A stretch of 64,000 nucleotides of DNA from an uncultured Spirochaetia bacterium (GTDB lineage Bacteria; Oederibacteriota; PGYV01): positions 130,583 through 194,582 of the forward strand of contig CAYQIS010000002.1 of NCBI GenBank assembly GCA_964417645.1, in the 5' to 3' direction. The translations under genes were made by a program, and so were the position numbers. Of the stretch, positions 20,405 through 64,000 are shown in pieces; position 1 is the stretch's first letter; every line of letters begins with the position of its first letter. The notes beneath the pieces were generated by a model. It was not told the DNA's origin, searched no databases, and saw only the letters and a list, made by a program, of their open reading frames with translations.

Positions 20405-20449
20405 AGATGTTGTGATATAATGACAGCATCTTTTAACCGCGGAGGCATT

Positions 20450-24245: not shown

Positions 24246-27200
24246 GTGAGATTTAACGTAAAAGCGATTTTATTATCCGCAATAGCGTTTCTTTTTTCGC
24301 TCATTATATATGCGGATACCTGTAATATGCCGTTCCCCCAGGCGGAAACATATCCTTATGGGTTAAAGCCCAATAATTATACCCAGGCACAAATGAACGC
24401 CCATTGTCAGGCATGGTTTGACAAGTGGCGCGCTAAATATCTTACACAAACCAATTGCGCTCCCGGCGAATGGAGAGTTCAAAGGACAGAGACAGGAAAC
24501 TCCATTCACAAAGGGTGCCCTGAAAATGATACGGTAAGCGAAGGCATAGGATATGGCATGTTAATCTGCGCATATATGTCCTCGGTCACAAACAACACAA
24601 AGCAGTATTTTGACGGCTTATGGAATTATTATAAAAATCATCTTGACGGCAACGGCCTTATGAACTGGCAGATACCATACTGCGACAGCGGAGGGGCGGC
24701 AACAGATGCGGATCAGGACGTTGTGTAGGCGCTGATTGTGGCGGACAAGCAGTGGGGAAGCGCCGGCGCAATAAATTATCGCAACGAAGCAATAGCGCTT
24801 GCCGCAAAGGTGCTTCAGCATGAAGTTACGGCATCAAATGATATAAGGCCGGGTGACGGATGGGACGGAGGCAATCCTTCTTACTTTGCCCCTTACACTT
24901 ACAGGATGATAGGTGATTATACCGGAGTTACAAGATGGTACAGTGTGGCAAGCAGAACATATAACACAATTGTCAAATATTATTATACATCATCTTTAAC
25001 CTATGACAGCACACTTAAAATGTACACAGGAATGCAGCCAAACTGGTGCAATTATGACGGAAGCCCGTGGAGCCCAGGGGCGTGGTGCATGAGGGCCGAC
25101 ACATGGTGGTGGGACGCAATACGACATGCCTGGAGGCAGGGTTATGATTATGTTTTATACGGAAGATTAAACAGCGGATATGCCCAGGATAATTCGTTCA
25201 GAATATCAGAATATTTTAAGACAAAGTATAACGGCAATCCCGCTCTTATAAAATCACATTATGAGTTAAACGGAACGGAAACATATTATTGCAGGGGAGA
25301 CAGGACGCCGGATCTTTGCACGGAAGATGTAAAAAACCTGCCGGGTCCTGTTGGTGCGATTGCTGTTGCCGCTATGGCGGGAGAGGATCAGAATTGGCTT
25401 AACGCCCTGTATGACAGGCTTGTTAATATGGATGCAGGAAACGGGCCGGGTGAACTTACTGAAACCGGCGTTATGTGGGGAACGGATTATTTTTGTGACA
25501 TATTAAAAATGCAGTATCTTCTTATTTTAACCGGGAATATGCCAAATCCTCTGGGCAATTATCCCACACCCACGCCTACCAATACATGGAATCCTTTAAC
25601 GCCCACGCCGACACCCGTGCCTCCGGGATTGTTTGATGATTTTGAAACAGGCGCGCTGATGAATCCTGACACATCGGAATCAGGCGGAGGTTCAACCGCC
25701 ACAATAACAAATACAACCGCTGACAAATACGAAGGGGCAAGGTCAATGCGCGTTGACACAACAGGAACGGGCTGGGCTTTGCTTTCGATTGATTCGCCCT
25801 ATGACGGCGGAATCGGTTATAGGAATTTTACCGGCGCAACTGCGCTTACCTTCTATATTAAAGCGCCGGCAAACACCGGGTTTTTCATTCAGCTTACCGA
25901 GGCAATGTCAGGCGGAGGTGACGGCGAAAGGTTCAGCAACAGGAGCACAGGGTTTACGGCAAACGGTTCGTGGCAGTTAATATCCATAAATCTTTCTTCG
26001 CTTACGCGTGACCAGTACACGCCGGCTTACGGCGACAATATTCTTGATATACAGGCGATAAAGTCTTTTGTTGTACAGTTTGACAATCCCGGCACAAAAA
26101 CAATATATATAGACAGAATAATGTTTACCGGAAATTTCCCCACAAGCACGCCTACTTACACAAATACAAACACAAGAACCCCTGCGCTTACTTACACTTT
26201 CACTTCAACGGCAACGTTTACAAGAACCCCCACACAGACAGACACGGTAAACCCGCTTTGGACTCACACTTATACTTTTACAAGCACCAATACGGCAACA
26301 AACACAAACACATATACGGCAACACATACTGCAACGGCAACGCCTTCCGTGATATCTCCGCCGTCGGCCGGAGTTTTTGATGACGCCGAAACAGGCGCGC
26401 TTAAAAATCTTACAATAAACGGAACCGCTGTTTCCGCCGTTGTAAATTCATCCGCGGCCGCACATGCCGGAACAAGGTCCATAAGGGTTACAACAATAAC
26501 AAGCGGCGCATGGGGGGGCTTTACGATTGAATCTCCGTATGTTGCCGGAAGTTACGGTGATTATACCGGCGCAACAGCTTTGAATTTCTGGATTAACGCT
26601 CCCGCGAATTCGGGCAATTTTTTCATAAAAGTTATTGAATATAATGCCGGAGGAAGCGGCGAAGAATATTCAAATCGCGGCGCACAGATAACGCCCACAG
26701 GAACGTGGCAGAACGTAAATATTTTACTTTCTTCTCTTACGAAAGATCAGTACTCGCCCGCGGGAGACGGAAGCAACACGCTGAATTTAAACAAAATACA
26801 ATACGTAATGTTTCAGTGGGATTCTTCAACCGCGGCAACGATATACATTGACGACATAAAATTCGCCGGAATGGCCACATTTACGCCCACAGGCACTTCA
26901 ACCTCAACATACACATATACAAGAACACAAACCGCAACTTCCACTTATTCGGCCACTGCAACATACACATTTACGGCCACCCATACAAATACCGCAACCG
27001 CAACTTATACATCAACAGTTGTTCCTTCAAATACAAGCAGTAATACGGCAAACTATACTGCGACAGGCACCAATACCACCACTCCTTTGCCTTCAAACAC
27101 AAACACAGCAACGCATACTGCAACGGCAACAGGCACGCCTGCATATACAAGTACATACACTTATACGGCAAGCGTAACAAATACCAATACGGCAACATAC

Positions 27201-28028
27201 ACGCCAAGCAATACTGTTACAGGCACCCAGCCCGCAACAAGCACTTTTACGTCCACACATACCGCAAGCTCAACTTATACCCATACAAGGACTTTTACCG
27301 AAACCCAAACTTACACCAATACATTTACTCCTGTATTCACGGATACCGTTACATTGACATTCACATCAACCAACACAGCAAGTTTTACATATACTCCAAG
27401 CAATACGGTTACGCCCGGCGGCCCGACTTTTACCCATACAAACACATTTACGAACACAAACACATTTACGCCAACTTTTACCGCCAGCAGCACATATACC
27501 GCGGCTTTTACCAACACTCCGTCTTATACAAGCACGCCTGTTCCGCCTACACTTACAAATACCGCAACATCCACACATACAAACACCTTTACCAATACAT
27601 TTACCCGGACTTACACTCAAACAGCTGTATTTACGGCAACCAATTCATTTACCCAAATGCCCACTCAGACATATACCAATACACCTGTGGTACAGCAAAG
27701 CAATGAGCAAAAGGCGGAAGTAAAACTGATATATCCGATGCCTTATGATCCGCTAAAAGGCAAACCTCTGTACATTCAATACATGGCAGGCAAAAGCCAT
27801 TCAGGCGTGCGTTTTATGGTTTATTCCTCAAGTTTCAGGCTTATCAGGGAAGTTATATTTGAAAGCAACCTTCCCCCAGGGTTAAATACACTTTCTGTTC
27901 TCCCTCAAAATTTTGAGGGGCTTGCAAACGGCACATATTATTATTTGTTAACTGTTGAAAATGACAATAACGAAAAATCACGGGCAAAAGTTGACAAACT
28001 TATAATTCTTAAAAGTAAAAAAGATTGA
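24246..28028 (+). CDS. secreted GH8 family glycoside hydrolase with two CBM-like modules, alternating-Thr linker and C-terminal sorting domain; interrupted by one in-frame TAG (24726-24728)
   Basis: GTG 24246 with RBS GGAAGGTG, then a signal peptide. GH8 motifs span the TAG (..GAATDADQDVV*ALIVADKQWG..). ORFs 24189-24728 and 24738-28028 are in the same frame. Two FDD(F/A)E...IYIDxIxF modules, a linker of about 270 aa, and a variant C-terminal domain (LIYPMPYD...FMVYSSSFRLIREV...GTYYYLL). Confidence 0.75.
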
Positions 28029-28082: not shown

Positions 28083-28115
28083 TTTAGGTAAACGTTTAAC
28101 TAAAAACGGGTGAAT

Positions 28116-29057
28116 ATGAAAAGAGCAACAATAAAAGATATAGCAAAAGCAGCCGGTGTTTCTTTTGTGACGGTATCAAAGGTTTTAAATAATACCGGGT
28201 CAATATCAAAAAAAACATCGGATAAAATAAGAAGACTGGCCAGGGAAATGAATTACATCCCTGATAATGCGGCGCGGGCGCTTGCAAAAGGAAGGCCTGA
28301 TTCAATTGCGATTGTCACGCCAAGTTTTACAACCGGCTTTATGCAGCAGCTTTTTATGGGCATTCAGGAAGAGATGCTGGGGTCTGACAAGGATGTTAAT
28401 TTTCATATTTCCGGAATGTCCGGCGAAGACATAGAAAAATCGCTGAATGTTATCAAGCACGGCAAAAAAGCGGGATCCATAATTGTTATTTCACAGCAGC
28501 CTGATGCGGCGCAGATTGACGGCTTGGTAAAAGCGGGAATACGCGTTGTGCTTGTTGAAGGCAAGCATCCAAAAGCCGTGATGATAAGCGCTGACAATGA
28601 AAACGGGGCAATACTTGCGGCAAGGCGTATGGTTGAAACAGGGGTAAAAAAACCGGGCCTTATTATAGGCGATGTAAAAATGATAAATTCACAGAAAGAA
28701 AGACTTGCGGGATTTAAAAAAATATTTGGAAATAAATTCAGCATTTATGAATTAAGGGAGCATTCATTTAATGACGGAATTAAAGCTTTCAGATATCTTT
28801 CGAATGAAGGTGTTGACTCTGTGTTCTGCGCGGCGGGAGACCTTGTTGCGTACGGTTTCTTATTTGAAGCCGGCAGATATAACAGCAGGATAAAGATAAT
28901 AGGTTTTGATGATGATCAGCTATCCGAAGGTATGGGGCTTACAACGGTAAAACAGGATGTCAAAGGAATGGGAGCGGCGGCATTTAGGGCGGCTGCAAAC
29001 GGTCCTGACTTCGGTGTAATAAATTTTAAAACAGAATTGATTGTAAGGAGGACATAA
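28116..29057 (+). CDS. LacI family transcriptional regulator
   Basis: N-terminal HTH MKRATIKDIAKAAGVSFVTVSKVLNN plus a periplasmic-binding-protein-type ligand domain. The stop directly abuts the ATG of the GH30 gene. Confidence 0.85.
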   Translation: MKRATIKDIAKAAGVSFVTVSKVLNNTGSISKKTSDKIRRLAREMNYIPDNAARALAKGRPDSIAIVTPSFTTGFMQQLFMGIQEEMLGSDKDVNFHISGMSGEDIEKSLNVIKHGKKAGSIIVISQQPDAAQIDGLVKAGIRVVLVEGKHPKAVMISADNENGAILAARRMVETGVKKPGLIIGDVKMINSQKERLAGFKKIFGNKFSIYELREHSFNDGIKAFRYLSNEGVDSVFCAAGDLVAYGFLFEAGRYNSRIKIIGFDDDQLSEGMGLTTVKQDVKGMGAAAFRAAANGPDFGVINFKTELIVRRT

Positions 29058-39707: not shown

Positions 39708-39736
39708 TTGACAATATAAAATTTTCTGTGTATATT
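39708..39736 (+). promoter_or_regulatory. sigma-70-like promoter of the GH5 gene
   Basis: TTGACA-17 nt-TATATT about 40 nt upstream of ATG 39776 (RBS GGAGA). Confidence 0.55.
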
Positions 39737-39775
39737 TATGCAAACGATTGTTTAAAATATTACATGGAGAATTTT

Positions 39776-42688
39776 ATGATAAAACAAACTACTAAAGCAT
39801 TTTCGTTAAAAATTTTTAACTTTTTTTGTATTTCCATACTTTTATTATCAACTAATCTTTTTGCAGATATGATTTATGACGGGGATACGGCAGGATATCG
39901 GCTGTCGGACGGAACGGTAATAAACGGCTCGCCGGGCACCATGACCGAAACAACAGGCGGAAATCCCGGAAATCTTATGCGTCTTACATACACTTCCATA
40001 TCAAGCTGGTGGCAGGAACACAGGTGGGATAAAACAGTTAATATACCGTTTGGAGCAAACACTCATTTAAGATTCAATGTAAGACGCGCTCCCACAAGTC
40101 CGGGCACTGTAAGCGTTTTTCGTGTAAGAATAGATTACAACGGAAATTATGTTGATGTTGCAAATTATCTTTTGGAAGGCGGTTCAATTGACTCCACTTG
40201 GAAAACAGCCAATATACCTTTGGCTGATATAAAAGGCCCATCTCAGACACAGATAGATTTCATTAATTTTATAGCAAACTGGAATTCTGATTACACTGTT
40301 GATATTGATAACATTTCAATTGAAGGCGCTTATACTCCCACATATACATATACCGTAAACCCTTTGTTTACGGCAACATACACTCCAACCCCCGCGCCAA
40401 CGTCTGCAGGCATGCCGCGCATATCAATCAACGGCACGGAATTCAGGGCATGCGGCCAGAGAATCTGGATGTGCGGCGCCAACACGCCGTGGGATAATTG
40501 GAATGATTTTGGCGGGAATTATGACCCTGACTTTTGGAACACTCATTACGCTCAATTTAATGCTTACGGGCTTAATTCCTCACGCGTCTGGATAACCTGT
40601 TCGGGCGAAGTGGGAATCAACATAGATACAGCAGGATATGTATCAGGCGCAACCGCCGCGCACTGGGCGAACCTGGATGATTTTTTTGCAAAAGCCCAGG
40701 CAAAAGGCGTTTACATTAAAGCAACCCTTATTTCATTTGACCATTTTAAAAGTTCGTATACAACATATCAGCGCTGGAGAAACTGGATAAATTCCGACGC
40801 CAATATTGATTCTTACATAAACAATTATCTTATTCCTTTTGTTAACAGGTACAAGAACAATACCGCCCTTTGGTGCATTGACATGACAAATGAACCCGAG
40901 TGGGCAACAACATCGGAAGGCGGAACAATAACATGGGACAGGTTCCAGAAATTCTGGGCAAAGGCCGCAAAGGCAATACATGATAACAGCGAAATACTTG
41001 TAACAGTTGGAATTGGTGTAATTAAATATAACAGCGACAATCCGGGAATGAACGGCAATAAGGTAAGCGATGCGGCCCTTCAGGCGCAGCTTAATGATCC
41101 AAAGGCAAAACTGGATTTTTATTCGCCCCATTGGTATTCGTGGATGGATCCTTACTGGACTATATTGATGTATACAACGCCTTCTTCTTTTGGAATAGGG
41201 ACAAAGCCGTGTATTGTGGGCGAAGCGCCGGGAACAGCTTCAACAGGGCACACGCTTGCCCAGGATTATGAAGCGGCTTATACCAACGGCTGGCAGGGTT
41301 TTATGCCGTGGACTTCAAACGGTGTTGACAATTTTGGCAACTGGAGCAATGTTTCGCCGGCTTCCAATTCTTTTAAAAACAATCACTATAATCTTGTGTT
41401 CCCGCCATGCTCAACATCAACCCCCACAAATACAGGAACATATACAAAAACAAGCACTCCTGTGCCGCCAACGGCAACCAACACTTCAACCAATACAAAC
41501 ACTGCAACATTTACTTTTACGGCAACAGGCACAAATACTGCTGTTCCCACAAATACAAGCACTCGTACAAACACCAACACCGCAACATACACTTATACTG
41601 CAACATTAACTCCTGTGAATACAAACACCTTAACCGCGACAAATACAGCTGTGCCTTCCACATACACTTTTACCGCCACAAATACCGCCACGTCAACCGC
41701 AACCCACACGGCGGTTAACACAAGCACCAATACAAGTGTTCCTTCGGCAACGTTTACCAATACTTCAATAAATACGCCGGTAAACACCGCAACAGGCACT
41801 TTTACAAGCACATACACTTTCACATACACATTAACGCATACTTCAACACACACAAACACATCAACGGCAAATTATACTTACACGGTTACCTATACCCCCA
41901 GCGAAACAGTCACAACGGGCGGGCCAACGCTTACATTTACGCACACATTTACGCAGACTTATACAAGCACAAGCACATATACGGCAGCATCAACTGCAAC
42001 AAGCACTTATACAAATGTTCCCACAGACACAGCAACCAATATTCCCGCAACATCAACATACACCTCAACAGCAACCGCAATTATTCCAACTTCAACAAAC
42101 ACAAGCGTGTTCACAAATACGCATACGCCTGTTAATACGGCAACATTTACACATACAGGCACAAACACTTATACAAACACGCCGGTGCCGCCGACAGCAA
42201 CAAGTACAGCGTCAAATACAAGCACGCGCACATACACGCATACGCTGACAAACACAATGACACGAACACCTACGCATACATTTACCAATACGTATACATA
42301 CACGCACACGGAAACCGCAGTTCCTTCGTTTGCCAATACTTATACATTTACAGCAACAATAACGCCTACTCCGACGCCGTCTGATTCAAAAGAGCAGGAA
42401 ATAAAGGACATATTGCTGTATCCGAACCCGTATGATGCAAAGAACGGGAATTTAAAGATAAAGTACACGATAACAAAAAGGGCGCAGACAGTTAAGCTTT
42501 TGATATATTCATCGGCGTTTCGCCTGATACGCGAGATTGAAATAGGCAGGGAAATGCATGCGGGAACGCGTATCGGAGAAGTAAAGGCTTCACAGATAAA
42601 AACGCTTGCAAACGGAACATATTATTTTGTTATTACGGAAAGCGAAGGAAAAAGGTCAAAAGCGGATGAAATAATAATATTAAAATAA
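39776..42688 (+). CDS. secreted GH5 family glycoside hydrolase (clan GH-A, mannanase/glucanase-like) with N-terminal CBM-like module, about 330-aa alternating-Thr linker and C-terminal sorting domain
   Basis: Signal peptide from ATG 39776. Beta-sandwich module, then a TIM-barrel region with a NEPEW acid/base motif and a ...GEAPG nucleophile region. Long TxT linker and C-terminal domain. Confidence 0.7.
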   Translation: MIKQTTKAFSLKIFNFFCISILLLSTNLFADMIYDGDTAGYRLSDGTVINGSPGTMTETTGGNPGNLMRLTYTSISSWWQEHRWDKTVNIPFGANTHLRFNVRRAPTSPGTVSVFRVRIDYNGNYVDVANYLLEGGSIDSTWKTANIPLADIKGPSQTQIDFINFIANWNSDYTVDIDNISIEGAYTPTYTYTVNPLFTATYTPTPAPTSAGMPRISINGTEFRACGQRIWMCGANTPWDNWNDFGGNYDPDFWNTHYAQFNAYGLNSSRVWITCSGEVGINIDTAGYVSGATAAHWANLDDFFAKAQAKGVYIKATLISFDHFKSSYTTYQRWRNWINSDANIDSYINNYLIPFVNRYKNNTALWCIDMTNEPEWATTSEGGTITWDRFQKFWAKAAKAIHDNSEILVTVGIGVIKYNSDNPGMNGNKVSDAALQAQLNDPKAKLDFYSPHWYSWMDPYWTILMYTTPSSFGIGTKPCIVGEAPGTASTGHTLAQDYEAAYTNGWQGFMPWTSNGVDNFGNWSNVSPASNSFKNNHYNLVFPPCSTSTPTNTGTYTKTSTPVPPTATNTSTNTNTATFTFTATGTNTAVPTNTSTRTNTNTATYTYTATLTPVNTNTLTATNTAVPSTYTFTATNTATSTATHTAVNTSTNTSVPSATFTNTSINTPVNTATGTFTSTYTFTYTLTHTSTHTNTSTANYTYTVTYTPSETVTTGGPTLTFTHTFTQTYTSTSTYTAASTATSTYTNVPTDTATNIPATSTYTSTATAIIPTSTNTSVFTNTHTPVNTATFTHTGTNTYTNTPVPPTATSTASNTSTRTYTHTLTNTMTRTPTHTFTNTYTYTHTETAVPSFANTYTFTATITPTPTPSDSKEQEIKDILLYPNPYDAKNGNLKIKYTITKRAQTVKLLIYSSAFRLIREIEIGREMHAGTRIGEVKASQIKTLANGTYYFVITESEGKRSKADEIIILK
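41690..42688 (+). repeat. 3' linker plus C-terminal-domain cassette, copy 4 (extended about 1 kb of similarity with 48497-49432)
   Basis: Near-identical stretches, e.g. AACCCACACGGCGGTTAACACAAGCACCAATACAAGTGTTCCTTCGGCAACGTTTAC, are shared with the beta-helix gene. Confidence 0.7.
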
Positions 42689-42698
42689 ACGACATATA

Positions 42699-42727
42699 TT
42701 GATTTAAATTTTTTGTATTTGTATAAT
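42699..42727 (+). promoter_or_regulatory. sigma-70-like promoter of the second lacI gene
   Basis: TTGATT-17 nt-TATAAT, then RBS AAGAGG and TTG start 42752. Confidence 0.5.
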
Positions 42728-42751
42728 GGTTCAAAAAATTAAGAGGAAAAA

Positions 42752-43780
42752 TTGAAGCCGACCACAATAAAAGACATAGCAAGAAGACTTGATCTTAGTT
42801 TTACGACGGTATCAAGGGCCCTTAATAATGACATCAAAATTAAGCTTTCAACAAGGGAATTGGTAAAGAAAACGGCCGAAGAAATGAATTATTTCCCGAA
42901 TATGGCGGCCAGGGGTCTTGTAAGACGAAAATCCGAAACAATAGCGTTTATGAGCACCCGTTTTGCCGCACCTTTTATTTCAAATGTACTTGATGCTTTT
43001 GAACAAAAAGCATTTTATACCGGAAGATATGTGCACGGGATTATTCCTTATTCAACAAGAAACGAGGAAGCTGTTAAAGAAATGCTTTTAAAGCGCATTT
43101 TAAGGGGAAGGATGGCGGATGCTCTTGTTATGCTGTCGCAAAGACCTTCGGAAAAAATATTGGAAGAGTTTAACATGGCCGGAGTTCCTGTTTTGTTGAT
43201 AGAAAATAGAATGCCCGGCGCACACTCCATAACCGTTGACAATGCCCACGGAGCGCGCTCCGCCGCGCAGTATCTTGTAAAAACCGGAAGAAAAAGAATA
43301 TGCCTGATAACCGGTGAAATAATACAGCCGCCAAGCAGGGATATAAACACGGCGGCCGTTGAAAGAAAAGAAGCTTTTGTGTCCGAGGTGCTTGAAAGCG
43401 GAATATTTTTTAATGAAAGCAACATAGAAACAATACATGCATATAAATATGAAGAAGGCATGACAGCTTTGGATAATTTTATAAAAAAAGGAATAAAACC
43501 TGACGCAATATTCTGCGCGGCGGGTGACATTGTTGCAATGGGAGTGCTGGAGCGTGCAAGAGAAAAAGGAATAAGCATTCCCGAAGACATGGCAATTATA
43601 GGATATGACGATATACTTTCAGCCAAAAATCTTAATCCTCCACTTACAACCATAAGACAGCCTCTTCATGAAATCGGGGAAATGGCTTTTGAGATGATTC
43701 TTGATGCGGTGGACGGAAAATTAAAAGAGACAAAAAATGTGGTAATTAAACCGGAATTAATAATACGCAAATCCGCGTGA
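42752..43780 (+). CDS. LacI family transcriptional regulator
   Basis: HTH (TIKDIARRLDLSFTTVSRALNN) plus a type-I PBP ligand-binding domain. Confidence 0.85.
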   Translation: MKPTTIKDIARRLDLSFTTVSRALNNDIKIKLSTRELVKKTAEEMNYFPNMAARGLVRRKSETIAFMSTRFAAPFISNVLDAFEQKAFYTGRYVHGIIPYSTRNEEAVKEMLLKRILRGRMADALVMLSQRPSEKILEEFNMAGVPVLLIENRMPGAHSITVDNAHGARSAAQYLVKTGRKRICLITGEIIQPPSRDINTAAVERKEAFVSEVLESGIFFNESNIETIHAYKYEEGMTALDNFIKKGIKPDAIFCAAGDIVAMGVLERAREKGISIPEDMAIIGYDDILSAKNLNPPLTTIRQPLHEIGEMAFEMILDAVDGKLKETKNVVIKPELIIRKSA

Positions 43781-43781
43781 A

Positions 43782-44210
43782 ATGATGAATTTCGAAAAAG
43801 AATTTGACATATGGAAAAACAGATATTTTCAAAATTTTTGCATAAATAAATGTTCTGACACATGCTGCAATATGAGCAGTTTCTCGCTGCATTTAACGGA
43901 GAAAGAACTTATAAAAATGCTCGGGGAAAAAAAGGAAAAAGCGGAACTTAAAGCAATGGGGATAAAGCATGACGGGGGCGCTTATTTTTTCGACAATGCG
44001 GGCTTCTGCCCGAAGTTTGATCAAAAAACACGGATGTGTTTGTCTTATGAAAGCAGGCCGAACAGCTGCAGGGAATACCCTTTTATTGTTGAACCTGACG
44101 CGATTATTATTAAGAAGGGATGCTCTCTTGCAAAGGGGTACGTTGAATATCAAAAACTTTCAGAGCTTGGGTTGCGGCACGGAAAAGTTATAGTTAAAAA
44201 AGACAGATAA
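43782..44210 (+). CDS. YkgJ-family Cys-cluster protein (putative Zn/Fe-chelating CxxxCxxxCC domain, PF03692-like)
   Basis: FCINKCSDTCCN...C..F......CLSYESRPNSCREYPF pattern. Confidence 0.55.
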   Translation: MMNFEKEFDIWKNRYFQNFCINKCSDTCCNMSSFSLHLTEKELIKMLGEKKEKAELKAMGIKHDGGAYFFDNAGFCPKFDQKTRMCLSYESRPNSCREYPFIVEPDAIIIKKGCSLAKGYVEYQKLSELGLRHGKVIVKKDR

Positions 44211-44299
44211 AAATTTTCAAACACAACCTTACAAAATACTTCCAATTGACATTATTAAAAATTAATTTTATAATTGTTAAAGGATATAAGGAGGCTGTG

Positions 44300-45169
44300 A
44301 TGAGCGAAATAGACCACAGAAACGCCACAATTGCATTTGTCAGCCCGCGATTTACATCCCCTTTTATGATAGAAATCCTTACGGCCGCCGAGGAAGAAGC
44401 ATATAAAAGCGAGAGATTCCGCGGGGGAATTCTTCCTTTTTCAACATGGAACATAGACAGCGAACGCGACAGGATACTTCATTCCCTGATTGATGAAAAA
44501 AAAGCAGACGCAATTGTATTGATAACCACATGGCCTGTTCCGGGTTTTGTTGAAGCGTGCGCGCAAAAAAATATTCCTTTGATTGTGGTTGAATACAGCA
44601 TAAACGGTGTTTTTTCGATAATGAATGACAATTTTACGGGCGGATATATCGCCGGCGAATATCTTTCGCAAAAATATGGCGAGGATACAGTTATAGTAAA
44701 CGGCCTTACATCGCATGAAAAAGGCAAGGACATACATCCGGCGGCAATTGACCGTCTTAAAGGTTTTAAGGTGGCTTTTTCCAATTTTGGATTCCAGCCT
44801 GAATCAATAAAAAACATAAATGTGCTTGCATATACAAGGCAGGAAGGTTCTGAGATAATGCGCAGTCTTGCCCGTGAAACAAAGATGCCCCGTTCGGTGT
44901 TTTGCGCGGCGGGAGATGAAACGGCAATAGGCATAATTGAAGCCGCATTAAAGCTTGGATTAAAAGTTCCTGAAGATATTGCAATAATGGGCTATGACGA
45001 CATAGAAGCCGCCGGTTTGATGAAACCGGGATTAACCACAATAAGGCAGCCGCTTGCGGAAATAGGAAGGATTGCATTTGAAGCGGCTTCGAAAATGGCG
45101 GACGGGGAATCTGTTGAAAAGGGGGTTGTTACTGTAAAACCTGAACTTATAGTGCGAGAATCAGCATAA
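44300..45169 (+). CDS. LacI-type ligand-binding-domain protein lacking the N-terminal HTH (HTH-less LacI paralog)
   Basis: Clear homology to the sugar-binding core of the 42752 regulator (IAFVSPRFTSPFM.. versus IAFMSTRFAAPFI..; shared C-terminal YDDI..A and TTIRQPL motifs). Begins at ATG 44300 with RBS AAGGAGG. No signal peptide and no HTH. Confidence 0.75.
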   Translation: MSEIDHRNATIAFVSPRFTSPFMIEILTAAEEEAYKSERFRGGILPFSTWNIDSERDRILHSLIDEKKADAIVLITTWPVPGFVEACAQKNIPLIVVEYSINGVFSIMNDNFTGGYIAGEYLSQKYGEDTVIVNGLTSHEKGKDIHPAAIDRLKGFKVAFSNFGFQPESIKNINVLAYTRQEGSEIMRSLARETKMPRSVFCAAGDETAIGIIEAALKLGLKVPEDIAIMGYDDIEAAGLMKPGLTTIRQPLAEIGRIAFEAASKMADGESVEKGVVTVKPELIVRESA

Positions 45170-45180
45170 CTTATATAAAC

Positions 45181-45215
45181 AAAAAGCCCGTCCTTTCAAG
45201 GACGGGCTTTTTGTT
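45181..45215. terminator. bidirectional intrinsic terminator
   Basis: AAAAAGCCCGTCC-TTTCAA-GGACGGGCTTTTTGTTTTTTT, lying between convergent genes. Confidence 0.8.
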
Positions 45216-45224
45216 TTTTTGCCG

Positions 45225-46052
45225 TTATTCGGCAGAGGCTTTTGTGTCTTCTGGTTTGCTTTCCTTTTGACCAATGGTGAAATTGTAATTAATCATCAAA
45301 GAACCTGAGGCCAGGTTTTTATATAATTTTCCGGTTTCCTCTTCTTTTGCGTCGTTTATTCCAAACTGCATAAAAACAGAAGGAGTAATTGTGAAGTCTC
45401 CGATCTTGTAATTTGCATAAAGGTTAAGTCCGGCCGCGGAGAGTTTTGCTTCTTCGGTTTCCTTTGTTTCCGCCGTAATTTCGTCAATTTCATATTTGAC
45501 GAAATTAAGGTCCATGCCTATGCTTGCTTCCGCACCGAAGGCGATATTGCCGCCGAGCATCTCGCCAATTTCATATTCGTATGAAACGCCCGCTTCAAGG
45601 TAATTGTATTTTGTGGCTACGTTAATGCTGTGTATTATCGTCACGTAAGGGTTTGAAATTACATCTGCACTTAAAGTGACATACACTTCTTCGCTAAGTT
45701 CTTTTGTTAAGAACGGGAAGTTTGATTTCGGGTTATAAAAAGTGGCTTCATATCCCGCGGTTAAACTTAAAAACTCCGCATAAGGTATTGCCTGCTTGCA
45801 GCTTGCATACAGTCCCCATTCGTCAAACATGTCCGGTGATGCAAAACCGTGGCAGGAAGACCATGTTTCCAGTGTTACCCCGTAAGACGAAAGGCTTAAT
45901 CCGGGCTGAATTGCCGGGCCGTCGTTTACAACAAGACCCCTGTCAAGATACCTTGTCACCCCTGCCGTATAAATGCTGCCGTCAATTGAAAAAGCAAAAG
46001 ACATTGAAACAAGAACCAAACAAATTACTCCTGCAAGTGCTGTTTTTTTCAT
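45225..46052 (-). CDS. putative outer-membrane beta-barrel protein (hypothetical)
   Basis: Signal peptide (MKKTALAGVICLVLVSMSFA), alternating amphipathic beta-strand pattern, aromatic-rich C-terminal region. The only minus-strand gene in the window. Confidence 0.55.
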   Translation of the reverse strand: MKKTALAGVICLVLVSMSFAFSIDGSIYTAGVTRYLDRGLVVNDGPAIQPGLSLSSYGVTLETWSSCHGFASPDMFDEWGLYASCKQAIPYAEFLSLTAGYEATFYNPKSNFPFLTKELSEEVYVTLSADVISNPYVTIIHSINVATKYNYLEAGVSYEYEIGEMLGGNIAFGAEASIGMDLNFVKYEIDEITAETKETEEAKLSAAGLNLYANYKIGDFTITPSVFMQFGINDAKEEETGKLYKNLASGSLMINYNFTIGQKESKPEDTKASAE

Positions 46053-46149
46053 TTGTTCCTCCGTTTATTATTTTTACCGCCCAAAAATAATTTAGCATAA
46101 ATCAGGACATAAGGTTACCTGAAAATTATTTTGATACATTGAAGGTTTT

Positions 46150-46178
46150 TTGTTATGTTTGATAAAATATGTTATAAT
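46150..46178 (+). promoter_or_regulatory. sigma-70-like promoter of the beta-helix CAZyme gene
   Basis: TTGTTA-17 nt-TATAAT, then RBS AAGGGAG and GTG 46208. Confidence 0.5.
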
Positions 46179-46207
46179 TATTGTAATAAAACCAAAGGGA
46201 GTAATGA

Positions 46208-49200
46208 GTGAGAAAAAACATTTATTTTATTTTTGTTTTCTTACAATTTTTTTATTCCTTAATATACGGCTGGGAATCACAGCTTTTTCCTTTTAATTCG
46301 GTAACAGGAAAATATCAGGAAGCTGTTGTGAATTTTAACGGAAGAAACTGGAAGCTTCTTGATTACTCATACACAGGATATAATCTTGGAAATACGGGTT
46401 TAAGAAAAAACATACCCTGCAATATACAGACAATTACGGGTTCAGGAGACATAACAGCTGAACTTCAGACAAAAATTGACGCGGTTGGCGCGGCAGGAGG
46501 GGGAATAGTAAGGATACCTGCAGGAACATTTACGATAACAGAGCACACTCTTCACGGCGGATTAAAGCCAATCGGCATTAATTATCCAAATGTATCAATA
46601 GAAGGGGCCGGAAGCGGCAGGACAATAATAAATGTTCCGCCAACCCACACTTACAGCAGCGATGCAAACGCTTTTGAAGGCGTGTTTACTTTTGAAAAAT
46701 CAAGATGGGCGTGGAACAAGGGCTGGGTTGACAGGGGAACCGTGCTTTCCGGAATTACCCAGCCGATAGCTGAAGGGGCAACGTATTTGACCGGTGTCAC
46801 CAATCTTGCGGGTATAGCGGTTAATGACTGGATAATTATATAGCAGTACTGGTGGCAGACTTTTTCCCAGCAGAATTCTGCCGGAGTGTGGCAGTATTAT
46901 CCGCCCAACACAAACAGGGAAACAAATTTTGTGTATTTAAGAAAAGTAATTGCAAAGGACGCTGGCGGAATAACGATTGACGCGCCTATCCCTTTTTACC
47001 TTGACCCCGCAAACAATCCCATAACAATAAGAAGAAGCGGCCCCGATACCACATCTTATCAGATGCTTGAAAATGTGGGCATATCGGGGCTGACCATACA
47101 GTTTCAGGACGTAAATATAGGAGCAACAGGCAGGCCGGAAGGCGCGGGTATTGTTATGGAAGGCGTTGTGAACGGCTGGGTGTATGACGTTCATGTAAAA
47201 AACTTTCCGCGATACGGTTTTTATTTTGAATATGACGCGCGTCTTTCTTTTGTAAATTGCGTGGCCAAAAAAACCCAGGATTACGGGGGGGACGGTTACG
47301 GATACGGTTATCATAATTATGCATCGCAGAATGTCCTGATAAAAAACTGTTATGCCGAAGACGTAAGGCACGCTTATATATTCCAAAAGCCCCTTGCCAA
47401 TTACTGCGCCGTTGTTGATTCCGATTCAATTGACTGCCGCCAGGGAGAAGACACGCATCATTCTTTCTGCCATGCCATTTTGCGGGACAATGTGCGCCAC
47501 AGCCACGGCAACAAGATGGTTGGTTATAACAGGGGAACAACCAGCACAAATGCTTACGAAACTTACGGTACGGGAGTAAATTGGAATGTGACGGGTGACG
47601 GCATTGGGGGTGTGTGGGAAAGCGCGATTTTCTCAATGAATCCTGCGCCGTATCCCGCTCTTTACACGCACGGAATCATGGTCGGGGGGCCGGGTTTATA
47701 CAGGGTGTTTGACAACGGTTCTCACATAAGCGGAACCTATGTTGAAGGCGATCAGATTTTTCCGTCCCCCGGATTTCAGGTTGGGATTAGTGGGGATAAA
47801 AATATGCTGTATGAAGGGCTGGGACAAACAGGCCTTATGCCTTACTCGCTTTATAACACACAGCTTTCAAACAGGCTGGGTACGGTTCCTGCCGTATGGG
47901 ACAATACCTGCGGCGATGCGCCCGCATTGCCTGCGGCAACACCGACCCCTGCTTTGTCAGGAGAACTAATATTTGACAGCGAATACGCTGCATGGGGTTT
48001 CAGCTTCGGAAGCTCCTGCCCGCTGCCTTTAAACACACTGACACCGGGCACCAATCCCGATGATATGGGGCAGGTTCACAGCGGTATTGAGGCAATGCGT
48101 GTTGATGTAAGCGCGGGAAGCAACTGGACGCCCATGTTCGTGTTCGGGGGGCCGGACCTTAAGGCAACGGATTTTACAAATATAGAGTTTTGGATATATC
48201 CAACAAACACAGCCATGCAGTGTTATGTAAATTTGATGGATGATGATGCGGGAACATCGCTTGGAAGCACGGTTACATTAAGCGGCAGCTATGCCCAGGG
48301 AGGCGCTTTTATTGCCAATACATGGAATAAAGTTACCATACCTCTTACCGCATTTGCTTATTCAGGCACATTCAGCGGAATCCGTTTTTCGCGAACGGGC
48401 ACAGCGCCGGGAACTTTTTATCTTGACGATATGTATCTTACAGGGGGCGCACCAACCGCCACACCCACAAACACAAGCACCCAGACCGCAACAAATACCG
48501 CAACCCACACGGCGGTTAACACAAGCACCAATACAAGTGTTCCTTCGGCAACGTTTACGAATACTTCAACAAATACACCCGCAAACACCGCAACAGGCAC
48601 TTTTACAAACACATACACTTCCACATACACATTAACGCATACGTCAACACACACAAACACATCAACGGCAACATATACTTACACGGTTACCCATACCCCC
48701 AGCGAAACAGTCACAACGGGCGGGCCAACGCTTACTTTCACGTACACATTTACAAACACTTATACAAGCACAAGCACGCATACTGCAACATCAACATACA
48801 CCTCAACAGCAACCGCAATTATTCCAACTTCAACAAATACAAGCGTGTTTACAAGCACGCACACCCCTGTTAATACGGCAACATACACACATACAAGCAC
48901 AAATACTTATACAAATACGCCCGTGCCGCCGACTGCAACAAATACCGCGTCAAATACAAGCACGCGCACATACACGCAAACAACGACAAACACAATGACA
49001 CGCACGCCCACATATACAGTCACAAATACGTATACATACACGCACACGGAAACCGCAGTTCCTTCGTTTGCCAATACTTATACATTTACAGCAACAATAA
49101 CGCCTACCCCGATAACGCCTGATACAAAAGAGCAGGAAATAAAGGATATATTACTGTATCCGAATCCTTATGACGGTAAGAACCAAAATTTAAAGGTAAG

Positions 49201-49432
49201 TTACACAATAACAAAGAGTGCAACATCAATAAGGTTCAGGATATATTCATCGGCGTTCAGATTGATACAGGAAACTGAAATAGGCAGGGCATTGCATGCA
49301 GGGATACATACGGGAGAAGTGAATGCATCACAGCTTAAGCTTCTTGCAAATGGAACATATTACTTTGTAATTACGGACAATGAAGGTGCAAGGTCTAAGG
49401 CGGACAAATTTATTATAATTAAATTTCACTAA
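46208..49432 (+). CDS. secreted right-handed beta-helix protein (pectate-lyase-superfamily / GH28-GH55-like) with CBM-like module, alternating-Thr linker and C-terminal sorting domain; interrupted by one in-frame TAG (46841-46843)
   Basis: N-terminal [35 protein letters not shown] is the signature opening of Pectate_lyase_3-type beta-helix enzymes. ORFs 46208-46843 and 46886-49432 are in the same frame. [11 protein letters not shown]...[10 protein letters not shown] module, TxT linker and C-terminal domain follow. Confidence 0.7.
48497..49432 (+). repeat. 3' linker plus C-terminal-domain cassette, copy 5
   Basis: See copy 4. The C-terminal domain here is more diverged (..[18 protein letters not shown]..). 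Confidence 0.7.
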
Positions 49433-49494: not shown

Positions 49495-50340
49495 ATGAAG
49501 TTTAAAGATGAAAACCGTAAAATTACGCCCGGAAGAATAGCCGTAATAAAACCAACCATAAATTCCATATACGAAATGAGTCTTGTCAGCGCCGTTGAAT
49601 CGCATTTATCGGATATTGGGGCAAATCTTGCGGTTTTAACCGCGGAAAATGACAATGTTAAGGTTGTGGAAACAATTATGGACGTTATAAAAACGGGCTG
49701 GGCAGGCGCGATTATTACAGTGAATGTCAAGCCGCAGGAAATAATTTCAAGGCATTGTGAAGCTGCAAGGATTCCTCTTGTTATGATAGACGGAGGAGAG
49801 GCTGTATACACAAACACCATAAATATAGATGATTATCACAGCGGTTTTACCGCTGTGGATTATTTGATAAAAAGCGGCAGAAAAAAAATTGTGGTTACAT
49901 CAGGAGACCCGAAACACGGCTACTCACAGGAAATGCGGCTTCTTGGATGCAGGCAGGCTTTTTATGAAAATCAGGTTTCTGAAAGCAGATATTCTTTTTT
50001 GAATTATTTTCTTTATTCAAGGGAAGACGGCATAGCCGCATTTGGGGATATAATAAAAGAAAAACCTGACGCTGTTTTTTGCGCAAACGGCGACAATTTT
50101 GCAATAGGTTTTATGGAAGAAGCAATGGAAAACAGGGTGTCAATACCGGATAATATAGCTGTTGTGGGACATGATGACATAGGTCTCTCCGGTGTGCTTG
50201 GGCTTACAACAATGCGCCAGCCTGTAGGGCTGATGGGGGAAAGGGCTGTTGAAATAATAGCGGATATAATTAACGAGAAAACAAAAACTCCTGTGTCTGA
50301 AGTGTTTAAGGCTGACCTGATAAAAAGGCAAAGCGCCTGA
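49495..50340 (+). CDS. second HTH-less LacI-type ligand-binding-domain protein
   Basis: Type-I PBP / LacI sugar-binding core with conserved ..VVGHDDI..TTMRQP.. C-terminal motifs. No HTH and no signal peptide. Confidence 0.7.
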   Translation: MKFKDENRKITPGRIAVIKPTINSIYEMSLVSAVESHLSDIGANLAVLTAENDNVKVVETIMDVIKTGWAGAIITVNVKPQEIISRHCEAARIPLVMIDGGEAVYTNTINIDDYHSGFTAVDYLIKSGRKKIVVTSGDPKHGYSQEMRLLGCRQAFYENQVSESRYSFLNYFLYSREDGIAAFGDIIKEKPDAVFCANGDNFAIGFMEEAMENRVSIPDNIAVVGHDDIGLSGVLGLTTMRQPVGLMGERAVEIIADIINEKTKTPVSEVFKADLIKRQSA

Positions 50341-54553: not shown

Positions 54554-55129
54554 ATGAAAAAAGCTTTTCTTGTGGCGTTATCGATTTTTGCCGTTGCTTT
54601 ATTTGCTTTCGCGGCGGAATCAAAGAAAACATCCGAAAAAGAAAGAAAAGGGGCGATAAAGATTACGGGGGCCGGAGGCGCAATAAATATAACCAAAGAA
54701 TCTCTTACGCCGGAACCCGCGGTTAAGCAATTAAGAAATATGGAAAAAAAAAAAAAAGAAGCGGTTAACAAGGAATCCATACTTAAGGTTGACATAGATG
54801 AAGCCGAGATTTTATACAAAAGCGGAAAGGCGCTGTTTGTTGATGCGCGCGGAGCTTTTGAATTTGATGACGCCAGAATTAAGGGCGCGATAAACATACC
54901 CGCGGGAGACGCTGAAAGAAGGATTGAAGCCCAGAAAGAGCTGCTTAAAGACAAAATACTTGTTACATATTGTTCCGGAGCAGGCTGTCATCTTGCCGAC
55001 AAGGTTGCCAATGCCCTGTTTGATTCGGGTTACAGAAAAGTTGTAATATTTTTTGGCGGCTGGCCAAAGTGGACAAGCGCCGGGCTGCCTGTTGAGGGCA
55101 AGAAAACAAAAGACGGAAAGCTTCAGTAA
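54554..55129 (+). CDS. secreted rhodanese-domain protein (sulfurtransferase-like)
   Basis: Signal peptide. Rhodanese active-site loop YCSGAGCHLA. Confidence 0.65.
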   Translation: MKKAFLVALSIFAVALFAFAAESKKTSEKERKGAIKITGAGGAINITKESLTPEPAVKQLRNMEKKKKEAVNKESILKVDIDEAEILYKSGKALFVDARGAFEFDDARIKGAINIPAGDAERRIEAQKELLKDKILVTYCSGAGCHLADKVANALFDSGYRKVVIFFGGWPKWTSAGLPVEGKKTKDGKLQ

Positions 55130-62845: not shown

Positions 62846-64000
62846 ATGGTAAAAGTGCGTTTTGCGCCAAGCCCGACCGGCTACCTTCATATTGGCGGGG
62901 CAAGGACAGCTTTGTTTAACTGGCTTTTTGCCAGACATAATAAAGGAAAGTTTATCCTGAGGATAGAAGACACGGATCAGGAAAGGAATTCCGAAGAGTC
63001 GGTTAAAGCAATATTGGATTCAATGAAATGGATGGGTCTTGATTGGGATGAAGGTCCCGGCAAAGAAGGCGAAAGCGGGCCTTATTTTCAGACACAAAGG
63101 CTTGATATTTACAGAAAATATGTTGAAAAACTTTTGGCCGAGAAAAAAGCATATAAATGTTTCTGCACAAAAGAAGAACTGGACGATGCAAGAAAAGCCG
63201 CGGAAGCAAACAAGACAGCTTTTAAATACGACGGAAGGTGCTCGCGTTTAACCGAAGAAGAGGTAAAGGCCAAGGAAGCCTCAGGCGCGGGCTATACAAT
63301 AAGGATTAAGATACCGCAGGAAGGCGAGACAACAATAAATGACATTGTGCGCGGGGATGTTAAATTTAACAACAGTGTGCTTGATGATTTTATAATAAGT
63401 CGCGCCAGCGGCATGCCAATGTATAACTTTGTTGTTGTGGTTGACGACGCATTGATGGGGATTACACATGTTATAAGAGGGGAAGACCATTTAAGCAACA
63501 CGCCAAAGCAGGTGCACATATACAAGGCGCTTGGTTTTCCCGTGCCGCAGTTTGCGCATATTCCGCTTATATTGGGGCCTGATAGAAGCAAATTAAGCAA
63601 GAGACACGGAAAGACATCCGTAGGTGAGTATAAAACAATGGGAATTGATCCGCGAGCTTTTATAAATTTTCTTGCCCTTCTTGGATGGTCATCTGAGGAT
63701 GGCGCGGATGTTATGAGCGTTGAGGAAATAATTTCAAAATTCTCGCTTGAACGCATTCACAAAGCGGGCGCCATGTTTGACAATGAAAAACTTTTGTGGC
63801 TGAACGGAATATATATAAGAAAAATGACCCCGGAAGAGCTTTTTGAGAAGTGTTCTCCTTATTTGGTAAGTTCCGGGCTTGTGAAAGAAGATGAGATTTT
63901 ATCAAAAAGGGAATACCTTATAAAAATCACAAAATTGCAGCAGGAAAAAATACGCTCTTTTTCGGAATTGCCGCAGATTTCCGGATATTTTTTCGGAGAG
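62846..64000 (+). CDS. gltX: glutamate--tRNA ligase, 3' end truncated by the window edge
   Basis: Class I aaRS HIGH motif (PSPTGYLHIGGARTALFNW) and KLSKR (KMSKS-type) motif. Open to the window end. Confidence 0.9.
   Translation, partial: MVKVRFAPSPTGYLHIGGARTALFNWLFARHNKGKFILRIEDTDQERNSEESVKAILDSMKWMGLDWDEGPGKEGESGPYFQTQRLDIYRKYVEKLLAEKKAYKCFCTKEELDDARKAAEANKTAFKYDGRCSRLTEEEVKAKEASGAGYTIRIKIPQEGETTINDIVRGDVKFNNSVLDDFIISRASGMPMYNFVVVVDDALMGITHVIRGEDHLSNTPKQVHIYKALGFPVPQFAHIPLILGPDRSKLSKRHGKTSVGEYKTMGIDPRAFINFLALLGWSSEDGADVMSVEEIISKFSLERIHKAGAMFDNEKLLWLNGIYIRKMTPEELFEKCSPYLVSSGLVKEDEILSKREYLIKITKLQQEKIRSFSELPQISGYFFGE

Follow-up and report, generated by a model that had tools for sequence, protein, structure and literature searches.

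Does a stop codon lying within an otherwise well-preserved bacterial gene change the way in which the genetic code is read there, serve as a switch, or simply mark a gene that has been lost? The question is raised by a stretch of 64,000 nucleotides – referred to below as the window – in which a premature in-frame amber codon, TAG at positions 46841–46843 of the + strand, falls within a secreted-type β-helix gene. The open reading frames on either side of it (46208–46843 and 46886–49432) lie in the same frame, as had been claimed in a preliminary description of this DNA, and the sequence across their junction reads GAC TGG ATA ATT ATA TAG CAG TAC TGG TGG CAG. The whole frame, 46208–49432, comprises 1,075 codons, with this TAG as the sole internal stop and TAA at 49430–49432 as its end. 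The homologues P0003 and P0004 run across the junction as unbroken single proteins (E ~1e-170, 100% query coverage), which places the shared frame of the two reading frames beyond chance. The TAG itself reflects a point substitution, in sequence that is not repetitive – there is no simple-sequence repeat or invertible element – and hence does not qualify as a phase-variable switch.

The layout of the gene, all of it on the + strand, can be followed from its 5′ end. A Shine–Dalgarno sequence, AAGGGAG, read directly from the DNA (46195–46201), precedes the GTG start at 46208 by 6 nt, and the encoded N-terminus – MRK..., a hydrophobic stretch and then W-x-SQLFPFN – resembles those of the homologues, so that no extra frameshift has to be invoked. 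A second 5′ lesion, suggested by an ATG at 46204 that opens a hydrophobic peptide in another frame, was dismissed on the same grounds, GTG 46208 having both the correct Shine–Dalgarno spacing and a homologue-aligned N-terminus. The 211 codons upstream of the amber (46208–46840), delimited from the reading frame and its translation, encode a predicted signal peptide (residues 1–21; 46208–46270), the cap and the first β-helix coils. Signal peptidase probably cleaves before W22, which, together with S24 and L26, is close to invariant in the homologue alignment. This N-terminal fragment is present in databases as a separate 211-amino-acid protein (P0194).

Downstream of the amber, residues 213–570 (46844–47917) make up the rest of the β-helix catalytic-type domain, as judged from the structure model, Foldseek and conserved columns, and contain most of its coils and most of its invariant residues. 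They are followed by a domain of ~175 residues (47918–48442), which aligns with the closest homologues P0002–P0004, P0006 and P0011, had no match in a Pfam search and is presumably a carbohydrate-binding-like module. Next comes a linker of the TxT type, recognised by its composition (48443–49111; 223 residues, 43% Thr), in which short-read assemblies break, two of them (L005 and L006, discussed below) at the same position, 48526. The C-terminal sorting-type domain (49160–49417) is marked by a weak, sub-threshold match to CHU_C, a type IX secretion signal (PF13585; 19.1 bits, the cut-off being 27), and similar C-termini are found on the locus's other secreted enzymes. Gene callers start the downstream reading frame at GTG 46886, giving an 848-residue database entry (P0001); the sole Shine–Dalgarno-like element there, GGAG, overlaps the start codon with no spacer at all (GGAGTG, 46883–46888), and no signal peptide follows. 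Public annotation lists two separate proteins, one from each reading frame.

What kind of protein has been interrupted? An AlphaFold model predicts one compact β-helix (pTM 0.90, mean pLDDT 83.5) with residue 212 inside it, so that, on this model, neither fragment would amount to a complete fold. A Foldseek search of the PDB returned 111 matches at E ≤ 1e-3 and identified the fold as a parallel β-helix, the best 50 of these 111 being β-helix depolymerases, lyases, epimerases and glycoside hydrolases; profile matches to PDB entries were limited to the N-terminal cap. The Pfam family Beta_helix (PF13229) reaches 22.6 bits in the window protein, against a cut-off of 25.9, and 31.9 bits in its orthologue L002, while PF12708 stays below threshold in P0010. 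The word CAZyme, used in the preliminary description, is thus borne out as far as the right-handed β-helix fold and the surrounding GH/PL locus go; it goes further than the family searches, in which no catalytic family of CAZy or Pfam rose above threshold for the window protein, and is best taken as a suggestion from fold and context. A more specific assignment of substrate or family was tried and dropped, as only generic fold matches emerged.

The reality of the codon has to be settled before its meaning. The contig, which belongs to a metagenome-assembled genome (MAG), gives some reason for suspicion: it has a probable consensus artefact elsewhere, an A14 run at 54744–54757 where two Logan assemblies have AAATTTTTGAAAAA, and a companion TAG in its GH8 gene, considered below, is missing from two other assemblies. 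Against this, the focal TAG recurs base for base in contigs that were assembled separately, from two or more sequencing runs – contrary to the absence from the underlying reads that the preliminary description had envisaged as a refutation. Logan contig L005 (SRR12997672) carries it and is 100% identical to the window over 6,069 bp, and L006 (SRR8581213) carries it together with one unrelated, distinguishing SNP in 4,002 bp; moreover, all three contigs on record that contain the neighbouring gene also have the 211-residue truncated product (3/3, two of the sequences being readable). As a Logan contig follows the dominant path of its assembly graph and no other, this allele evidence consists of assemblies, not of read frequencies. 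The focal TAG is no assembly artefact, then, and a sequencing or assembly error concealing a true CAG at 46841 is most improbable; within the population sampled, the TAG allele appears to be either fixed or dominant. A literature search yielded no paper in which the SRA runs are named, and a single-cell paper on Goldbacteria contained nothing on stop codons.

The ancestral state of the codon can be read from its relatives. In all seven of them the aligned codon specifies Gln – CAG in six (L002, L003 and L009–L012), CAA in one (L001) and TAG in none (0/7) – so that the focal TAG arose most simply by a single C>T transition. It falls within a conserved motif, W-[IV]-x-[IV]-Q-Q-Y-[WF]-W. The gene is otherwise intact, as previously described: 100 of the 102 columns conserved in at least 90% of homologues are kept, 33/34 before the TAG and 67/68 after it, and since the gene shows no further decay, the lesion is a recent one. 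Comparison with the relatives gives pN of 0.13–0.30 and pS of 0.68–0.87, reported in this form and not as dN/dS because synonymous sites are saturated against every one of them; values of pN so far below pS indicate that purifying selection acted over a long time before the lesion arose, very recently. No sense allele at 46841 turned up in the protein database, a one-genome-per-species set or JGI metagenomes, where only ~70%-identical relatives were found, an absence that is weak evidence because the protein search is non-exhaustive (the 211-residue fragment was unlisted as well). Decay of copies does occur in the lineage, given that a related Goldiibacteriota species has a deletion-truncated paralogue of the same β-helix family. 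A stand-alone N-terminal fragment of ~190 residues, fused to a C-terminal tail, was observed in a relative, in three assemblies.

How, then, is TAG read in the rest of the window? It ends seven of the 46 genes (15% of terminators), all at expected lengths: at 14105, 17747, 18662, 36439, 58201 and 59434 – the six already listed, correctly, in the preliminary description – and, on the minus strand, at 63292–63294. Pfam models finish near these stops, and gpmI, at 516 residues, compares with 515–518 in its homologues; gpmI and tatC are among the essential genes that end in this way, and six of the seven TAG terminators are not followed within 10 codons by another in-frame stop. In-frame stops in the window's ~19,800 codons amount to two TAGs, with none in housekeeping genes. 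The earlier exclusion of a global reassignment is therefore upheld; among bacterial genomes, every stop-codon reassignment known so far affects UGA (PMC8629427). The internal stops in many other genes that general pseudogenisation would bring are equally missing, no further disrupted gene having been found in the window, and ~80 kb of related loci held no comparable case of an in-frame TAG.

Searches for the machinery of recoding were negative within their respective scopes: a tRNA scan found none in the 64-kb window or the near-identical Logan contigs, an Rfam search gave no match, the window contains no pyl genes, and the RNA downstream of the TAG has an unremarkable folding energy (MFE –27.5 kcal/mol; z = –0.62 against shuffles). 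A programmed read-through or pyrrolysine site was rejected, as TAG is shared by none of the seven relatives and no stimulatory structure lies downstream. A third same-frame junction, at TAA 29055, was likewise set aside as a true terminator separating a LacI-family gene from a GH30 gene.

The companion amber, TAG at 24726–24728 (+ strand) in the GH8 gene (24246–28028), tells a different story. Where the window has TAG at 24726, two sibling assemblies have CAG, and in one of these that base is the sole difference from the window over 7.6 kb; in addition, a G7 run in the same gene (26512–26518) is G6 in one assembly. The GH8 TAG either segregates as a variant or stems from a MAG consensus error, and the earlier view that the two ambers are independent holds good. 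On/off variation within a population, another early suggestion, fits 24726 with its two alleles but not 46841, at which TAG is the only allele among the assemblies on record, and the notion that such ambers are confined to secreted CAZymes was overstated, with only two cases of which one may be a consensus error. In homologues, the GH8 amber column is occupied by L/F/M/W/Y, with Gln in 1/67; the proposal that TAG encodes one and the same amino acid at both sites was discarded, the homologue columns disagreeing (Gln at the focal site, L/F/M/W/Y here), although the species' own GH8 sense allele is CAG. That both window TAGs replace CAG has a probability of ~0.002–0.016 under a generic mutation spectrum, and of ~0.13 if GC>AT transitions alone are counted (from window codon counts), figures that describe a post-hoc pattern with n=2 and carry little weight. 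Look-ups of the window's GH8 fragments, gpmI, the histidine kinase and P0001 returned no records.

Taken together, these observations make the focal TAG very probably a genuine and recent nonsense mutation – one C>T change, most simply CAG to TAG – that has inactivated the gene; of the possibilities raised in the preliminary description, recent decay accounts best for 46841, with no further damage in the gene. On this account, a Gln codon would have been converted to TAG in an uncultured member of the Goldbacteria/Goldiibacteriota, within a gene whose intact product would have consisted of signal peptide, β-helix, accessory domain, Thr-rich linker and C-terminal sorting domain. Because TAG acts as an ordinary terminator in this organism, translation would stop after residue 211 and leave an exported stub of the cap and first helix coils, the remaining 862 codons having neither a usable ribosome-binding site nor a signal peptide. 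Judging from its sequence context, the downstream GTG would not support re-initiation, and a functional exported enzyme would be lacking except for any basal read-through. A loss of function is what the predicted break inside one compact fold, together with a downstream part devoid of Shine–Dalgarno sequence and signal peptide, would suggest. Too little time would have passed for further damage to build up, and the loss is probably tolerated owing to the many other polysaccharide-degrading enzymes and paralogues of the locus and genome. It would be an ordinary gene inactivation, with the reading of the genetic code unchanged.

Two other readings would let the interrupted gene keep a function. 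The amber might be leaky or suppressed, with a useful amount of full-length enzyme made through near-cognate tRNA-Gln(CUG) or a supE-like tRNA-Gln(CUA); the inserted Gln would restore the ancestral protein, and CAG>TAG would be nearly neutral or act as a dimmer of expression. Both window ambers do occupy Gln codons of the sense allele or of relatives, and the replacement of CAG at both is what a Gln-inserting suppressor predicts (weakly, given n=2); the TAG allele is common to two slightly different haplotypes and runs, and the gene is otherwise pristine – although an intact gene is equally expected after a very recent mutation. A TAG followed by C at +4 is the weakest termination context in E. 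coli, and as the base after the focal TAG is C, some full-length product is possible. Yet TAG terminators occur at their ordinary frequency, essential genes and unbacked stops included, the focal TAG is conserved in no relative, the scanned sequence offers no tRNA, Rfam match or unusual fold, and the GH8 site is tied to Gln only via the species' own CAG allele. Low-level suppression, as first suggested, thus finds no support, and we regard a leaky amber as unlikely; a natural suppressor that inserts Gln, or near-cognate read-through of UAG at an unusually high level, in a Goldbacteria-type host is very unlikely indeed. Barely credible is a functional split gene, whose two reading frames would be translated separately and joined into an active enzyme: both are called as proteins in public annotation, and the relative's ~190-residue fragment offers a parallel of sorts, but the break would fall within a single compact β-helix (as modelled), the downstream product, with neither a spaced Shine–Dalgarno sequence nor a signal peptide, would have no route to the periplasm, where its exported partner would be, and no relative is split at this position.

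A further proposal concerns the cause of the loss. Loss-of-function alleles of secreted enzymes – public goods – could be favoured, or segregate freely, in a near-clonal population through adaptive or frequency-dependent loss, the TAG at 46841 being one such allele that has gone to fixation. Over ~27 kb, the window and near-identical assemblies differ by only five variant events, two of which are the GH8 loss-of-function changes already described (TAG/CAG at 24726, G7/G6 at 26512–26518), and the locus encodes six secreted enzymes with overlapping roles. The numbers are tiny, however, both GH8 changes (G7/G6 and the TAG seen only in the MAG) may be technical, and relaxed selection without any benefit fits equally well; the proposal, which we consider possible though doubtful, refines the recent nonsense mutation and supplies no alternative mechanism.

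As a textbook amber mutation, the case is of little import in itself. Annotators should join the two reading frames and flag a pseudogene, not list two ‘hypothetical proteins’, and some caution is due in counting this β-helix enzyme, which from the sequence is probably not made, within the polysaccharide-degrading repertoire, just as the neighbouring GH8 ‘amber’ should be treated as allele- or assembly-specific. Were a near-clonal population truly to harbour several segregating loss-of-function alleles, the locus would offer a natural case, on a small scale, of secreted public-good enzymes being turned over in a cellulolytic lineage that is uncultured. Were a suppressor present, CAG>TAG changes would be tolerated and would dim particular secreted enzymes, TAG continuing to end most genes – a bifunctional UAG in a free-living bacterium.

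Several known systems invite comparison. Right-handed β-helix polysaccharide-active enzymes – phage tailspike depolymerases, the K1 capsule lyase, AlgE epimerases, GH110, GH87 and GH28 – have their overall fold in common with the window protein, down to the N-terminal cap motif G-D-I-T...GGG-I-V-x-I-P-x-G, but in structure the similarity is generic only (TM 0.2–0.4, 9–16% identity). The recoding of TAG to Gln in some phages and in the nuclear codes of ciliates resembles the present case in having TAG at a Gln position; such genomes contain many in-frame TAGs, avoid ending genes with TAG and encode suppressor tRNAs, whereas the window has its two in-frame TAGs and uses TAG as a regular terminator. 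Pyrrolysine and programmed read-through sites also place an in-frame UAG within a coding gene; here, however, the codon is not conserved in orthologues, has no significant downstream structure and no pyl gene in the window, and belongs to a gene family unrelated to the methylamine methyltransferases of pyrrolysine systems. With supE (glnV) suppression or near-cognate read-through, the insertion of Gln would restore the wild-type protein, Gln being ancestral here, but a search of the available sequence revealed no suppressor tRNA, and TAG ends essential genes normally. The closest likeness is to the classical amber (CAG>TAG) mutations and young bacterial pseudogenes, in which a Gln codon becomes a terminator, relatives keep the sense codon and no other damage is seen. 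From these the focal TAG differs in nothing essential, except that it has been encountered in an uncultured population, over several metagenomic runs, and not in a laboratory mutant.

A single amber codon interrupts the beta-helix gene at 46208–49432 on the + strand. The window reads GAC TGG ATA ATT ATA TAG CAG TAC TGG TGG CAG at 46826–46858, with TAG at 46841–46843, and a single-frame translation of 46208–49432 runs to 1,075 codons, closed by TAA and broken internally by this TAG only – which confirms the in-frame amber of the preliminary description. The start codon is GTG 46208, with AAGGGAG 6 nt before it; as full-length homologues have N-termini that align with its product, the out-of-frame ATG at 46204, considered as a sign of a second lesion, was rejected. 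A mechanical scan of the window for single-stop junctions joining long same-frame segments returned three of interest on the + strand: TAG 46841, TAG 24726 in the GH8 gene (described earlier as the first amber) and TAA 29055, rejected as a third interruption, being the genuine terminator at the boundary between a LacI-family regulator and the GH30 gene.

Public annotation splits the gene into an upstream protein of 211 aa (P0194) and a downstream one of 848 aa (P0001). The joined protein, used as a database query, found 73 relatives, many of them full-length and spanning both sides of the stop; two (P0003 and P0004) match at E about 1e-170, with 50–51% identity and 100% coverage. Pfam gave a sub-threshold match to Beta_helix and a weak one to the CHU_C type IX sorting domain, and a profile search of the PDB matched nothing beyond the cap motif found at the N-terminus in AlgE epimerases and pectin-lyase-like proteins. 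The AlphaFold model of residues 1–570 is a single compact right-handed beta-helix (pTM 0.90, mean pLDDT 83.5), whose Foldseek matches (TM 0.2–0.4) are generic for the fold; the helix is followed by a domain of about 175 aa that homologues share, a linker of 223 aa (43% threonine) and a C-terminal sorting-type domain. The beta-helix assignment is thus confirmed, and the label CAZyme can reasonably be inferred from the fold and the surrounding genes, short of demonstrated family membership. The gene is also a mosaic, its N-terminal part closer to L002 and its C-terminal part closer to L001, both DNA contigs of relatives.

Three contigs on record encode the truncated product of 211 aa, and a look-up of the neighbouring gene returned the same three, so that the TAG is present in every assembly on record for the region. 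Two of the three were read as DNA: the Logan contig L005 (SRR12997672) matches the window at 100% identity across 42458–48526, TAG included, and L006 (SRR8581213), which also carries the TAG, departs from it over 4,002 bp at a single base, 46020, where an A/G difference in the gene next door is synonymous. This agreement argues against the TAG being absent from the underlying reads, a doubt raised at the outset. No sense allele was found for this species in the protein database, among genomes taken at one per species or in JGI metagenomes, an absence that counts for little, since the 211-aa fragment was likewise missed by the protein search.

In the alignment the TAG takes the place of the first Q in the conserved stretch W-[IV]-x-[IV]-Q-Q-Y-[WF]-W, where the second Q (Q213) hardly varies. 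DNA was recovered for seven relatives, and each encodes Gln at the aligned position – CAA in L001, CAG in L002, L003, L009, L010, L011 and L012 – and none has TAG; the simplest history would be a single C>T transition from CAG to TAG. Among columns at least 90% conserved in 17 homologues, the gene keeps 100 of 102 (33 of 34 before the stop, 67 of 68 after), and its pN against relatives (0.13–0.30) lies far below pS (0.68–0.87, saturated values). On this evidence the gene has been under purifying selection for nearly all its history, and the lesion is recent; recent decay, one of the explanations first offered, fits 46841.

Termination at codon 212 would leave the signal peptide, the cap and the first helix coils; most of the helix, with the majority of the invariant residues, is encoded after the stop. 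The first start after the TAG, GTG 46886, has as its only GGAG one that overlaps the start codon, and no signal peptide lies behind it, so that a separately made C-terminal part would remain cytoplasmic. The TAG has C as its +4 base, which in E. coli makes for the weakest termination, and since near-cognate read-through of UAG inserts mostly Gln, any leak would yield the ancestral protein; nothing in the present data shows a leak above basal at this codon.

Global reassignment of TAG is excluded, as first proposed, because TAG ends seven of 46 window genes (TAA 25, TGA 14). Six have complete terminal domains and normal lengths: those for an NtrC-type regulator, whose HTH_8 ends 3 residues ahead of the stop, a DUF362 protein and the PL11-PL1 enzyme, together with tatC, msrAB and gpmI (516 aa versus 515–518 aa in homologues); the seventh, a 154-aa ORF (63292–63756, - strand), has no Pfam match. 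General pseudogenisation, which had also been considered, is absent, since all other genes examined in the window give full-length domain matches; across the roughly 19,800 codons of the window, no in-frame stop other than the two TAGs occurs. Low-level suppression could draw on the likeness of the two ambers. Under a generic mutation model with window codon usage, that both are TAG is unremarkable (P about 0.10–0.16), and that both are CAG>TAG is less likely, with P about 0.002–0.016. GC>AT transitions are the dominant mutation class in bacteria; when these only are counted, CAG>TAG makes up 331 of 921 nonsense targets, and two in a row have P about 0.13. The pattern leaves suppression a residual probability and does not justify invoking it, as n=2, the pattern is post hoc and one site is possibly technical. 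Other checks give recoding no support: the window and near-identical contigs hold no tRNA gene, there is no Rfam match, and no stimulatory fold was found by the TAG, the 130 nt from just before it being no better than shuffled (z = -0.62). 

On/off variation within a population, also suggested earlier, is seen at the GH8 site only (TAG versus CAG) and not at 46841, where all assemblies on record have TAG. In the GH8 gene (24246–28028, + strand) the window reads GTG TAG GCG inside the GH8 signature region, and the Logan contigs L007 (SRR12997672) and L008 (SRR12997673) read GTG CAG GCG; over 7,594 bp the amber base is the sole difference between L008, which encodes an intact 1,260-aa GH8, and the window. 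Because these near-identical contigs read CAG, the GH8 TAG must be one of two things, a nonsense SNP that segregates in the population or an error in the MAG consensus. L007 has G6 in place of G7 at 26512–26518, a GH8 frameshift leaving ORFs of 778 and 482 aa, and the SRR12997673 assembly has G7 and an intact GH8; this difference could be slipped-strand variation or homopolymer error. The window's A14 run at 54744–54757, in a rhodanese-like gene (54554–55129), reads AAATTTTTGAAAAA at the same length in two independent Logan assemblies, L020 and L021 (protein MEKKKKEA in the window versus MEIFEKEA); it is a probable consensus artefact of the source MAG, which lessens trust in MAG-only alleles. 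L007, otherwise near-identical to the window, also differs by 8 SNPs within 142 bp (21418–21559) of the GH77 4-alpha-glucanotransferase gene (20420–22285), with one amino-acid change only (S373Y), a cluster that points to recombination over a short tract or to a second strain.

The locus has further secreted enzymes built along the same lines – GH8, GH30, PL11-PL1 and GH44 – with LacI-type proteins interspersed among them. A 986-aa protein (39728–42688) with no Pfam or NCBIfam match shares this build; in its C-terminal region it resembles the neighbouring genes, with 89.5% identity at the DNA level across 229 bp. The LacI-family proteins at 28110–29057 and 42752–43780 have an HTH; those with the sugar-binding domain that flank the beta-helix gene (44246–45169, 49495–50340) lack the N-terminal HTH, and could be either regulators that have been truncated or binding proteins that act alone. 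A 275-aa protein (45225–46052, - strand) begins with a hydrophobic segment and matches no family. Long Thr-rich (TxT-type) linkers, which reverse local GC skew, occur on all secreted enzymes (~25.6–28.0, 30–32, 34–36.4, 38–42.6 and 48.4–49.1 kb). The short-read contigs examined tend to stop inside them (L005 and L006 at 48526, L016 and L017 in that of GH8). As the source contig, of 196 kb, spans them, it may come from long reads or hybrid assembly.

The organism belongs to Goldbacteria/Goldiibacteriota: its nearest named gpmI homologues are from Candidatus Goldbacteria (87%), Goldiibacteriota (71%) and then Elusimicrobia (about 62%), and the beta-helix gene likewise has its closest relatives in Goldiibacteriota MAGs. 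The closest orthologue, with 81% identity in the part after the TAG, is labelled 'uncultured Spirochaetia bacterium' as contig L001 (CAYNMZ010000211.1) and Candidatus Goldiibacteriota as protein P0002; one of these bins is probably mislabelled. A related Goldiibacteriota species has, almost unchanged in three assemblies (L004 9914–10624, L013, L014), a truncated beta-helix paralogue, in which the N-terminal ~190 aa – an extent close to the 211-aa fragment left by the TAG – are joined directly to the last ~25 aa of the C-terminal domain.

The amber nonsense mutation at 46841 is real, recent and of an ordinary kind; it probably abolishes the activity of one secreted beta-helix enzyme, or else leaves very little of it, and the polysaccharide-degradation locus around it is redundant. 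The observation in the preliminary description is confirmed and its interpretation partly supported: the absence of reassignment and the recent decay stand, population variation is shown at the other site only, and no evidence was found for suppression. The TAG involves no recoding and is not novel in kind; known bacterial stop-codon reassignments all concern UGA (PMC8629427). The fold of the interrupted protein bears a generic likeness, by Foldseek, to phage tailspike depolymerases, K1 capsule lyase, AlgE, GH110, GH87 and GH28.
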